Below are positions 2,981 through 4,775 of a stretch of DNA of 4,775 bases, piece after piece (the first letter of the stretch is position 1; each line of letters starts with the position of its first letter). The notes beneath the pieces are model-generated. The model was not told the origin of the DNA. It made no database searches and saw nothing but the letters and a program-made list of their open reading frames with translations. Source of the DNA: Naegleria gruberi (lineage: Eukaryota); assembly GCA_000004985.1 (NCBI GenBank), contig GG739174.1; one strand, 5' to 3'. The position numbers were made by a program, and so were the translations under genes.

Positions 2981-3631
2981 TTACATATACAATTTATAAA
3001 AGCTACGAGGTTTTGTCTTGCAAATAGGGCATTTAGAAAGGCAATGAGAACAACAAGTTTCGCAAAAAACATGTCCACAAGGATTGAAAGCAGCATTCTT
3101 ATTTCTATCCATACAAATGCAGCATCGTTGTTCTTCTTCTATTTTCTCCTTCAGATCCATCAGTTCATGGTTTGCAGTTTCTAGCTCAATTTTCATTCTT
3201 TCCAATTCACGTTTTTGAGTCTCAGGTTGCTGGTGTGAATTTTGTTTTTCAAGTATTTCATTCAATTTCACTTCAATTTTCATCTTTTCCTTTCCTATCT
3301 CAATCAGTTTGTTTTCAATTTTTATCTTTTCTTGTTCTTTGGTTCTCAAGTTTTGTTCAACTTGCTTATTCTCCTGTTCAATTTGCTCATTTAACTTTCT
3401 TTGTATATACCAATACCCCAAAAAGCTACCACCTACAATCACCAAAACTGTCATATAAATAGTATTTTTAAATTGATTTGCCAATTGGGTTTCCAATTGA
3501 ATTTGATCTTGTTCTTTTTTTAATTGTTGCAGTTTATATTCTTGTTCTTTTTCTAATTGTTTCATGTAATTTGTAAGGAACTTTGTATTTCCATAGTATA
3601 CGGCAATATCAAAAGCATCATATTTAGAGAA
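2981..3631 (-). CDS. Exon 2 (terminal) of a membrane-anchored RING E3 ubiquitin ligase. It encodes a partial ankyrin-like repeat, a TM helix (TIYMTVLVIVGGSFLGYWYI), an E/K/Q-rich coiled coil and a C-terminal C3HC4 RING of the IAP/MIB/MUL1 type.
   Basis: RING: 'CCICMDRNKNAAFNPCGHVFCETCCSHCLSKCPICKTKPRSFYKLYM*' follows C-x2-C-x11-C-x-H-x2-C-x2-C-x7-C-x2-C. The 'CxICMDRN...PCGH...CPIC' pattern and the protein ending about 12 residues after the last Cys are typical of IAP-class RINGs. The frame runs in-phase from the AG acceptor at 3633-3632 ('FSKYDAFDIAVYYGNTKFLTNYMKQLEKEQ...') to the TAA stop at 2983-2981. The supplied ORF 2981-3565 is the ATG-truncated version of this exon. Confidence 0.8.
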   Translation of the reverse strand, partial: FSKYDAFDIAVYYGNTKFLTNYMKQLEKEQEYKLQQLKKEQDQIQLETQLANQFKNTIYMTVLVIVGGSFLGYWYIQRKLNEQIEQENKQVEQNLRTKEQEKIKIENKLIEIGKEKMKIEVKLNEILEKQNSHQQPETQKRELERMKIELETANHELMDLKEKIEEEQRCCICMDRNKNAAFNPCGHVFCETCCSHCLSKCPICKTKPRSFYKLYM

Positions 3632-3676
3632 CTTTTAAAAATTAATATTACTCAGCTGCCTCAATAATTAACTTAC
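3632..3676 (-). other. 45-nt phase-0 intron of the RING ligase gene (GTAAGT...AAAAG)
   Basis: On the minus strand, exon 1 ends '...GAT TAT TGG' and is followed by a canonical GTAAGT donor (3676-3671) and an in-frame TAA. The acceptor 'ttttaaaag' lies at 3640-3632. Splicing joins the frames of the two supplied ORFs (3668-3997 and 2981-3565) exactly and completes an ankyrin-like repeat across the junction. Confidence 0.65.
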
Positions 3677-3880
3677 CCAATAATCAACTTTTTCATAAGG
3701 ATTGGCCTCTCCTCCTTTAATTAATTGATTGATCAATTCCCAATGATTGTTCTTAATGGCATCATGGAGTTGTTTGGTTGTTCTTTCATCACATGAAGCA
3801 ATAGTGATGAGAAGTAACATCATCATCATCATCATCAATACAAACAATATTACTGATTGAAGATTTAATGTTTTAGACAT
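3677..3880 (-). CDS. Exon 1 of the RING E3 ligase gene: signal peptide or signal anchor (MSKTLNLQSVILFVLMMMMMMLLLITIASC) followed by the start of an ankyrin-like repeat (TTKQLHDAIKNNHWELINQLIKGGEANPYEKVDYW)
   Basis: The ATG at 3880-3878 sits in an 'caaaaaATGtct' context. It is followed by an n-region (MSK), a hydrophobic core and an ASC motif. 'LHDAI..NH.ELINQLIKGGEANP' fits the ankyrin consensus (LHxAxxxGHxxxVxxLLxxGADxN). The supplied ORF's upstream extension to 3997 starts at a TTG, which is not a eukaryotic start. An alternative in-frame ATG exists at 3913-3911. Confidence 0.68.
3818..3835 (-). repeat. (ATG)6 / (CAT)6 trinucleotide microsatellite encoding a Met6 run in the signal-peptide hydrophobic core
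   Basis: 'catcatcatcatcatcat' is read directly; on the coding strand it gives MMMMMM. Confidence 0.9.
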
Positions 3881-4166
3881 TTTTTGTTTAATAAAGCAGT
3901 GAATGGTTCCCATCCACACAGGCTTAAACGTCTCAATCTTAATTACGGTTCCAAATGGGTAGAATTCACATTTCACCAAGGCGAAAAAATGGTGCAAAAA
4001 AAATTTTGAATGTGAACATGGTTACTTTGTAAACGTTCAATCTTTTACTGACTAATAACCTTGATTTCTGTCATATCCTATGATTAAACAGAAGTTACCT
4101 TATATCATCATATATACTTAATAAGAGAATGCATTTAATATAAAATCAATTTTCAACACAACAACT
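3881..4166 (-). promoter_or_regulatory. Intergenic region between two tandem minus-strand genes: the 3' UTR/poly(A) region of the upstream gene plus the promoter and 5' UTR of the RING ligase gene
   Basis: It lies between the TAA stop at 4169-4167 and the ATG at 3880. It contains A/T homopolymer runs (for example 'gcgaaaaaatggtgcaaaaaaaatttt' at 3981-4007). No specific element is recognised. Its GC is higher than a typical D. discoideum promoter. Confidence 0.3.
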
Positions 4167-4266
4167 TTAATTGAAATTATCCCATAAACCTCTAAAAGAT
4201 TTCTTTTTAATTGCATATGGTACTTCTAATGCTCCTCTTAACATTTTTAATACATCCAATCCCATA
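4167..4266 (-). CDS. Terminal exon of an uncharacterised minus-strand gene (…F MGLDVLKMLRGALEVPYAIKKKSFRGLWDNFN*)
   Basis: After the AATAG acceptor only one frame stays open. It runs 33 codons to the TAA at 4169-4167, and the other two frames hit stops within 20 codons. The phase matches the GTATGT donor choice upstream. Confidence 0.55.
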
Positions 4267-4281
4267 CTATTATAATAAAAT

Positions 4282-4309
4282 AAATATTAAATATTAAATA
4301 TTAAATATA
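4282..4309. repeat. (AAATATT)3-4 heptanucleotide microsatellite (intronic)
   Basis: Direct reading: aaatatt aaatatt aaatatt aaatata. Confidence 0.9.
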
Positions 4310-4344
4310 AATAAATATAAAACATATAAATAAATATAAAACAT
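4307..4344. repeat. Perfect tandem duplication of a 19-nt unit 'ataaataaatataaaacat' (intronic, ending 2 nt before the splice donor)
   Basis: The stretches 4307-4325 and 4326-4344 are identical on direct reading. Confidence 0.9.
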
Positions 4345-4346
4345 AC

Positions 4347-4775
4347 AAAATACCAATAATACCAGCAATTTGACCTAATAAACCTTCCATTGAAGAAGTT
4401 AAAAGTTCAGTAATCTTATTTTCATTTAAAGAAGAATAAGCAATTGAAATTACAACTAAATTTTCATCTGATTGAGTTAATTCAACAATTGATAATAAAG
4501 AATCCCATCTTGTATCAATTAAATCTGGATTTTCTATAGTTGGTTTTAATGTTTCAGTTACTATTTTTGTTAAAACAAAATAATTATCAACACCTGATAT
4601 TGCAAAATTAGTTTCAGCAAATACTTTTGGTATAGTTCCAGGTTCATGAAAACTAACTTGAAGTCCAAATCTAGAATCTCTATCTTCTGGTACATTGGGT
4701 ACATTAAAATAAAATGATATTGTACCTGCATATCCTGTTGCATTGGCTTTTTTTTTAATATTATATATTGTTATT
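4347..4775 (-). CDS. Internal or 5'-partial exon of an uncharacterised gene that continues beyond the window end. Product unknown: …KANATGYAGTISFYFNVPNVPEDRDSRFGLQVSFHEPGTIPKVFAETNFAISGVDNYFVLTKIVTETLKPTIENPDLIDTRWDSLLSIVELTQSDENLVVISIAYSSLNENKITELLTSSMEGLLGQIAGIIGIF
   Basis: There is a 143-codon stop-free frame on the minus strand from the window edge down to the GTATGT donor. Codon usage is typical (AAT, GAA, ATT, TTA, CAA). It is missing from the supplied track only because it has no in-window ATG. The true exon start may be the 'aaaaaaaaAG' acceptor at about 4747 or may lie beyond 4775. Confidence 0.62.

Follow-up and report, generated by a model that had tools for sequence, protein, structure and literature searches.

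RING ubiquitin ligases with parts comparable to those of the protein described here are known from the IAPs, from MUL1/MAPL/GIDE and the plant SP1/SPL proteins, from the PA-TM-RING proteins and from Mind bomb and the plant XBAT/XB3 proteins. We compared these with a locus of Naegleria gruberi on contig GG739174.1. The window, meaning the whole stretch of DNA analysed, was the entire scaffold of 4775 nucleotides (nt), with an internal gap at 2362–2839. The locus, at positions 2981–3880 on the minus strand, is probably a single two-exon nuclear gene, NAEGRDRAFT_76826, for a membrane-anchored RING ubiquitin ligase. Its gene structure, domain order and RING class are shown here.

The RING and C-terminal tail of the window protein were best matched by the IAP RINGs (XIAP, cIAP1/2 and BIRC7/ML-IAP), with which they share CxICMDRN, PCGH and CPxC motifs and a near-terminal aromatic residue. 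By analogy, this likeness predicts E2 binding and a dimeric RING. IAPs are BIR-bearing and soluble, whereas the window protein is predicted to be membrane-anchored and its His-to-Cys spacing is x2 instead of x3. There was no BIR domain among its Pfam matches at E ≤ 1, so the protein is not a member of the IAP (BIRC) family.

MUL1/MAPL/GIDE and the plant SP1/SPL proteins have two hydrophobic segments, a loop between them and a C-terminal, cytosol-facing zf-C3HC4_3 RING. The window protein also has two hydrophobic segments and a C-terminal zf-C3HC4_3 RING, which is predicted to face the cytosol. Its loop is, in contrast, short and ankyrin-like, and a long charged helix lies between the transmembrane (TM) helix and the RING. 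Since Pfam returned no GIDE domain (E ≤ 1) and the loop matches ankyrin repeats, the protein does not belong to this family either. The PA-TM-RING proteins and RNF43/ZNRF3 have a plan like the predicted one, consisting of a signal peptide, a small ectodomain, one TM helix and a cytosolic RING. However, PA-TM-RING ligases carry a PA-type ectodomain and a RING-H2 finger, whereas the window protein has an ankyrin-like ectodomain and a C3HC4 RING of the IAP type. Pfam gave no PA domain match in the window protein and zf-RING_2 remained below the cut-off. Without a PA domain, and with a C3HC4 rather than a RING-H2 finger, the protein is not a PA-TM-RING member.

In Mind bomb and the plant XBAT/XB3 proteins, ankyrin repeats stand N-terminal to a C-terminal zf-C3HC4_3-type RING, as the ankyrin-like repeats do here, and the third RING of MIB1 (RING3) was among the matches in the PDB. 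Those proteins are soluble and have further defining domains, and their numerous repeats share one compartment with the RING, whereas in the window protein the predicted TM helix stands between the two. The XB3/XBAT31 RING model PF24921 reached 14.8 bits against a cut-off of 50, and no Pfam match was found to MIB_HERC2 or ZZ domains. Because of the sub-cut-off XB3 RING, the missing MIB/HERC2 and ZZ domains and the intervening TM helix, membership of the Mind bomb/XBAT group is rejected. A sequence-only reading of this DNA had likened the protein to Mind bomb, XBAT and MUL1. The likeness holds as an analogy but not as membership, the defining domains being absent.

The gene, its product and a paralogue

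In the mechanical list of open reading frames (ORFs), the locus appears as two separate minus-strand ORFs, 3668–3997 (109 amino acids, aa) and 2981–3565 (194 aa). When the exons were joined, a 284-aa protein was obtained, running on the minus strand from 3880 to 2981. It was 100% identical over all 284 aa to EFC35519.1 / XP_002668263.1 / UniProt D2W5Y2 (D2W5Y2_NAEGR), the product of NAEGRDRAFT_76826. The deposited record, entitled ‘predicted protein’, is uncharacterised, and the same 45-nt splice is already in its model. The features of the gene and its product are as follows.

3677–3880, minus strand: exon 1, from the ATG (3880–3878) to Trp68, 204 nt, ending in phase 0; product XP_002668263.1
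3797–3853, minus strand: N-terminal hydrophobic core, aa 10–28, VILFVLMMMMMMLLLITIA; predicted signal peptide or signal anchor
3566–3778, minus strand: ankyrin-like module, aa 35–90, approximately 1.5–2 repeats; the intron falls in the predicted beta-hairpin loop
3632–3676, minus strand: intron, 45 nt, GTAAGT...TAAAAG, 24% guanine plus cytosine (GC), phase 0, with a TAA in frame upon retention
2981–3631, minus strand: exon 2, from Phe69 to Met284, followed by the stop TAA (2983–2981)
3395–3460, minus strand: predicted transmembrane helix, aa 126–147, IYMTVLVIVGGSFLGYWYI followed by QRK; Kyte-Doolittle (KD) window 1.63
3128–3394, minus strand: predicted helical stalk, aa 148–236, rich in E/K/Q (E 25%, K 16%, Q 11%)
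3020–3124, minus strand: C3HC4 RING, aa 238–272, IAP/zf-C3HC4_3 subclass, Pfam PF13920
2984–3019, minus strand: C-terminal tail, aa 273–284, KTKPRSFYKLYM; 12 residues past the last Cys

An exhaustive HMMER search with a cluster look-up identified a paralogue, XP_002677889.1 / NAEGRDRAFT_66852 (249 aa), encoded on an N. gruberi scaffold of 442 kb. It was collinear with the window protein over nearly its full length (31% identity, E = 5e-26), running likewise from a signal segment through an ankyrin-like module, a TM helix and a stalk to a C-terminal RING, and its gene had a short phase-0 intron. It differed in its shorter stalk and in its RING, where the third Cys is no longer preceded by Pro and three residues are inserted. 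Both genes had close copies in one metagenome (ENA ERZ929261): contig L001 (796 nt) carried a near-identical copy of the window locus, and contig L002 a copy of the paralogue with 98.8% identity. The A-rich stretch AAAAAATG upstream of the window ATG was identical at the paralogue locus on L002. A literature search with the locus tag or accession of either paralogue found no relevant paper.

The sequence-only reading had joined the two ORFs into one spliced gene. This is borne out by the exact match to the deposited model and by the paralogue with the same architecture and intron position, and all of its coordinates and the length of 284 aa were correct. Downstream of the gene, a run of 478 N (2362–2839) starts 141 nt past the stop codon, and a single N is present at position 35. 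Since the scaffold gap lies approximately 141 nt past the stop, the 3′ untranslated region and the terminator region may be incomplete.

The zinc-ligand pattern C-x2-C-x11-C-x-H-x2-C-x2-C-x7-C-x2-C matched aa 238–272, with eight of eight ligands present. Pfam assigned this segment to PF13920 (zf-C3HC4_3; E = 1.7e-9; score 37.7 bits, cut-off 27), and the finger lies 12 residues from the end of the protein, in agreement with the C-terminal, IAP-class C3HC4 RING proposed from the letters. The best PDB matches to the RING were XIAP, BIRC7, cIAP1/2, MYLIP and MIB1 (E = 5e-9 to 6e-6), the IAP matches spanning the RING only (aa 226–283). In dimeric IAP-type RINGs, a C-terminal aromatic residue contacts the donor ubiquitin in trans; an example is the complex of BIRC7 with UbcH5B~Ub (4AUQ). 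Tyr283 of the window protein aligned with the C-terminal (penultimate-region) Phe of XIAP, and the HMMER alignment to 8w59_A reached residue 283. Ile240 and the basic residue after the last Cys (Lys273) were conserved relative to IAP RINGs in the PDB alignment. This conservation is the only sign, and an indirect one, of the predicted E2-dependent E3 activity.

Protein anatomy, topology and intactness

The first hydrophobic segment had a KD peak of 2.96 in a 19-residue window (aa 4–32). It contains six consecutive Met residues encoded by an (ATG)6 run (3818–3835, minus strand), whereas L001 has (ATG)4. The Met run is, as judged from the two copies, a trinucleotide-repeat length polymorphism in the hydrophobic core. 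In the paralogue, KD peaks of 2.02 (aa 1–26 segment) and 2.16 (aligned with the TM helix of the window protein) were found. The basic residues of the window protein (QRK) lie on the RING side of its TM helix.

Between the hydrophobic segments, aa 35–85 matched designed ankyrin proteins in the PDB (phmmer; 4qfv, E = 3e-5). A BLASTP comparison with the consensus of designed ankyrin repeat proteins (DARPins) gave E = 4e-6, and hhalign of a two-paralogue ectodomain profile with the same consensus gave a probability of 93.7% (E = 1.8e-7); the DARPin consensus used in both is an approximate query. With the two-paralogue profile, 259 PDB matches were obtained at E ≤ 0.01, and the best 60 of the 259 were almost all ankyrin-repeat proteins. 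Pfam Ank scored below its cut-off of 21.1 bits for each paralogue alone (13.1 and 17.6 bits; E = 0.13 for the window protein). AlphaFold2 (AF2) with a 2-sequence alignment predicted two helices, a beta-hairpin at 65–72, over the splice junction, and two further helices, with a predicted local distance difference test score (pLDDT) of 70–86. A Foldseek search of the PDB with this model gave only non-significant matches to helical hairpins (best E = 0.64). The ankyrin-like repeats would number at most approximately two, and ‘1.5–2 ankyrin-like repeats’ seems a fair description.

The stalk was predicted by AF2 as helices at 138–198 and 205–236 (pLDDT ~70–80). Crude heptad a/d occupancy of aa 149–236 was not significant in comparison with shuffled sequences (p ~0.18), so it is composition and predicted helicity that argue for a coiled coil, which is probable. 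The single-sequence AF2 model was poor (pLDDT 58); adding the second sequence gave a better ectodomain, while the RING did not benefit. The domain order of the sequence-only reading is thus retained for the signal peptide or anchor, the ankyrin-like repeats, the TM helix and the RING, while its coiled coil is a predicted helix for which the heptad test was not significant.

From these features we infer the location and topology of the protein, together with its dimerization and its activity as an E3. Ubiquitin and the E1 and E2 enzymes reside in the cytosol. Because of this, and because QRK follows the second hydrophobic helix, the RING and the stalk are placed in the cytosol and the ankyrin-like module consequently on the opposite side of the membrane. 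The N-terminal hydrophobic segment would direct the protein to the membrane and would be either a signal peptide that is cleaved off or a first membrane anchor. The ankyrin-like helical module of ~95 residues would then lie on the non-cytosolic side, one TM helix would cross back, and the long charged helix would present the C-terminal IAP-type C3HC4 RING in the cytosol. There, the RING would recruit a ubiquitin-charged E2 and ubiquitinate proteins at that membrane. The protein would probably dimerize, with contacts made by the stalk and by the aromatic C-terminal tail in the manner of the XIAP, cIAP and BIRC7 RINGs, and the small ectodomain may serve for binding or sensing. The most likely interpretation of the sequence is a RING E3 that is tethered to a membrane, is probably dimeric and ubiquitinates proteins there.

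The fate of the first hydrophobic segment, with its core of ~19 residues, would decide the layout. If cleaved, it would leave a type I receptor-like protein; it could equally remain uncleaved and form a MUL1-like hairpin. The latter leads to an alternative in which the protein is an organelle outer-membrane ligase of the MUL1/MAPL kind. Both hydrophobic segments would then stay in place as TM helices, the intermembrane space would hold the ankyrin-like loop and the RING would be cytosolic. The two hydrophobic segments with a C-terminal zf-C3HC4_3 RING fit this alternative, a core of that length is long for a cleaved signal peptide, and the source of one related match calls it ‘E3 ubiquitin-protein ligase SP1-like’. 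We nevertheless regard it as unlikely, given that the intermembrane domain of GIDE/MUL1 was unmatched in Pfam at E ≤ 1 and that the loop of ~95 aa is ankyrin-like and not MUL1-like.

The two-paralogue profile was also compared with 5.8 billion protein clusters, of which it matched the two paralogue clusters only. The exhaustive HMMER search gave 1634 matches, nearly all of them over the helix and RING alone. A module of TM helix, coiled coil and C-terminal RING was also present in the SP1-like match, a crinoid protein (P0063), and in a multi-TM protein (P0137). Since matches in other eukaryotes share these three parts, the anchored stalk-RING plan appears to be recurrent, and only the ankyrin-like ectodomain is, as far as these searches indicate, particular to Naegleria. 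The family appears to consist of two Naegleria-specific genes with a conserved short intron. The combination of domains had been called unusual for so short a protein. It is not unique, since N. gruberi has it twice and the part from TM helix to RING recurs in other eukaryotes.

Several observations count against reading the locus as the gene of a membrane-anchored RING ligase. The hydrophobicity of the second segment was marginal (aa 126–144, KD 1.63), the RING was not folded confidently by AF2 (pLDDT <50) and, to our knowledge, ankyrin repeats outside the cytosol are rare. Neither the exhaustive HMMER search nor the profile search detected an orthologue outside the N. gruberi lineage, and support from conservation is therefore thin. 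Two scans of JGI metagenome contigs, one for the joined exon boundary and one for the terminal part of exon 1, gave no match and thus neither transcript evidence nor further copies, and look-ups of the exact products in the contig index (P0001 and P0153) returned no record. In addition, a stretch of 32 nt with the annotated ATG (window 3869–3900; L001 350–360) is missing from L001, which has a 3-nt insertion just upstream. The last 18 nt of L001 join 3436 to 3018 (L001 776–796; window 3019–3435), an apparent in-frame deletion of 417 nt which would take out the TM helix, the stalk and the RING. Because of the lost start and this deletion, the gene may be dispensable or decaying in a close relative.

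These observations bear on a second alternative, namely that this small unplaced scaffold carries a duplicate which is decaying or without function and whose structure is preserved in strain NEG-M in the absence of strong selection. The lost start codon of L001, perhaps with the further 417 nt, the position of the gene on a gapped scaffold of 4.8 kb and its lineage-restricted distribution speak for this alternative. The window itself, however, has preserved the reading frame, the splice sites, every zinc ligand and the TM helix, and the A-rich stretch preceding its ATG matches that of the paralogue. L001 differed from the window at 1 of 381 nt in the exons, compared with 13 of 253 nt in intergenic DNA. 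The anomalies of L001 lie partly at the contig end and may be assembly artefacts; they may represent an assembly or read chimera there, or real decay in a related strain. We consider decay of the window gene unlikely.

The 45-nt intron

The intron letters (3676–3632) are GTAAGTTAATTATTGAGGCAGCTGAGTAATATTAATTTTTAAAAG. If the intron were retained, translation would end in ...DYWVS*, the TAA being in frame right behind GTAAGT; that retention creates this stop had been pointed out in the sequence-only reading and was seen on translating the retained segment. Six GT..AG pairs in the region restore the frame, and GTAAGT is the donor only in the 45-nt option and in its 96-nt variant. Canonical GT-AG ends, an in-frame stop, a conserved position and relaxed constraint were all observed for the 45-nt intron.

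Three independent lines, namely the intron position of the paralogue, relaxed constraint and ankyrin-like continuity, support the predicted splice. For the first, tblastn and direct splicing of the paralogue copy on L002 identified a 48-nt phase-0 intron (GTATGT...TTAG, 683–730, 25% GC) with an in-frame TGA, at a position exactly homologous to that of the window intron. L002 also shows the same two-ORF layout as the window locus, and the paralogue alignment is ungapped at the junction (aa 68/69; KVDYW/FSKYDAF in the window protein and RIQYL/ISSWDAF in the paralogue). For the second, the 44 aligned nt of the intron showed 3 substitutions and a deletion of 1 nt between the window and L001. Their exons differed by 1 substitution in 381 aligned nt and a 6-nt in-frame change in the run of Met codons (substitutions in intron 3/44 vs exon 1/381; Fisher p = 0.004). 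In 253 nt of intergenic DNA, 13 substitutions and 6 indels were counted between the two. For the third, the ankyrin-like similarity was unbroken over the splice junction in both BLASTP and hhalign.

For the N. gruberi NEG-M genome, the published values are 33% GC, introns of 203 bp on average and 1.7 exons per gene (PMC8296547, Table 2). The intron had been compared with those of D. discoideum and found much shorter; this comparison is moot, as the host is N. gruberi and the intron of the paralogue is as short (48 nt). An origin from Dictyostelium, an idea to which the very AT-rich, Asn-rich left end of the window probably gave rise, was rejected in view of the identity to N. gruberi records.

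A single spliced gene could still be questioned if the two ORFs gave separate products, or if the intron were normally retained. The products would then be a secreted or anchored peptide of 70 aa and a TM-helix-RING protein of 194 aa starting from the Met codon at position 3565. The downstream ORF begins with its own ATG, prokaryote-style gene callers divide the window locus and the paralogue alike, and intron retention is reported to be the commonest mode of alternative splicing in non-animal eukaryotes, including N. gruberi (PMC6142364). Separate products would, however, halve the ankyrin-like repeat. The residues flanking the junction and the intron position are kept in the paralogue, both introns have in-frame stops and canonical GT-AG ends, and the intron has taken up a frame-breaking indel between strains. 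We judge separate products or habitual retention to be very unlikely. Least probable of all is an upstream donor at 3688 (GTTGAT) with a 57-nt intron, which would keep the frame open, remove Val-Asp-Tyr-Trp and shorten the protein to 280 aa, its inter-repeat loop then being of the length that is canonical for ankyrin. In the BLASTP comparison with the DARPin consensus, a 4-residue insertion fell exactly at VDYW. However, GTTGAT is a weaker donor than GTAAGT, the deposited model uses the 45-nt intron, and the paralogue argues against the alternative by keeping residues equivalent to VDYW (RIQYL/ISSW for KVDYW/FSKY) with its intron after them.

Scaffold context and significance

The remainder of the scaffold holds other genes. 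At its AT-rich left end, 129–1049 on the plus strand is an intact ORF of 306 codons with an Asn-rich N-terminus and 13.4% GC, compared with ~31% in the rest of the scaffold. It contains an RNA cap guanine-N2 methyltransferase domain (Tgs1-like; PF09445, E = 1.3e-17). An identical protein was not found in the 5.8-billion-cluster database, and for this reason the ORF seems absent from the deposited N. gruberi proteome. Its best relative (62% identity) is on metagenome contigs of 39% GC, beside a PCNA gene and a candidate of the Tim17/22 type (identified by eye). A giant-virus or contaminant origin of the AT-rich left end was considered, and the viral one was rejected in view of these neighbours and of the 39% GC of their contigs. 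The metagenome contig with the homologue of the Tgs-like ORF (L003) also encodes, at 614–1462 on the minus strand, a 282-aa protein of ‘DREVVLxAVxxxGxALxYA’ repeats, DUF4116-like by eye.

Between the Tgs-like ORF and the gap, the ORFs of 1051–2361 (~1.3 kb, 31% GC) do not exceed ~80 aa in either direction. This segment may be non-coding, or it may hold a gene that is degraded or is split by several introns. No match to Rfam families or to tRNAs was obtained anywhere in the window. On the other side of the RING gene, 4167–4775 on the minus strand is the 3′ part of a gene for a channel of the ENaC/degenerin type (PF00858 ASC, E = 1.2e-5), which continues beyond the window end. It has a probable 80-nt intron (GTATGT...AATAG, 4346–4267, 5% GC), and its last 92 nt were 100% identical in L001. 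The ENaC/degenerin family has been reported in Naegleria.

The RING gene itself is ordinary, lineage-specific and uncharacterised, and it addresses no long-standing open question. The deposited N. gruberi model NAEGRDRAFT_76826 is confirmed as correctly spliced, which is mainly of value for annotation, and a two-member, Naegleria-restricted family of predicted membrane-anchored RING ligases is now defined. We know of no description of an extracytosolic ankyrin module combined with a TM helix and an IAP-type RING. As a tentative possibility, the two Naegleria proteins might form a lineage-specific, receptor-like class of E3, with an ankyrin module in the lumen, at the cell surface or in the intermembrane space, a TM helix, a dimerizing stalk and a cytosolic IAP-type RING, in which a ligand on the outside would control ubiquitination inside. 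Should the predicted topology hold, the two proteins would provide a small instance of a membrane E3 whose ankyrin-like module faces away from the cytosol, and would be of interest for membrane-protein ubiquitination in protists.

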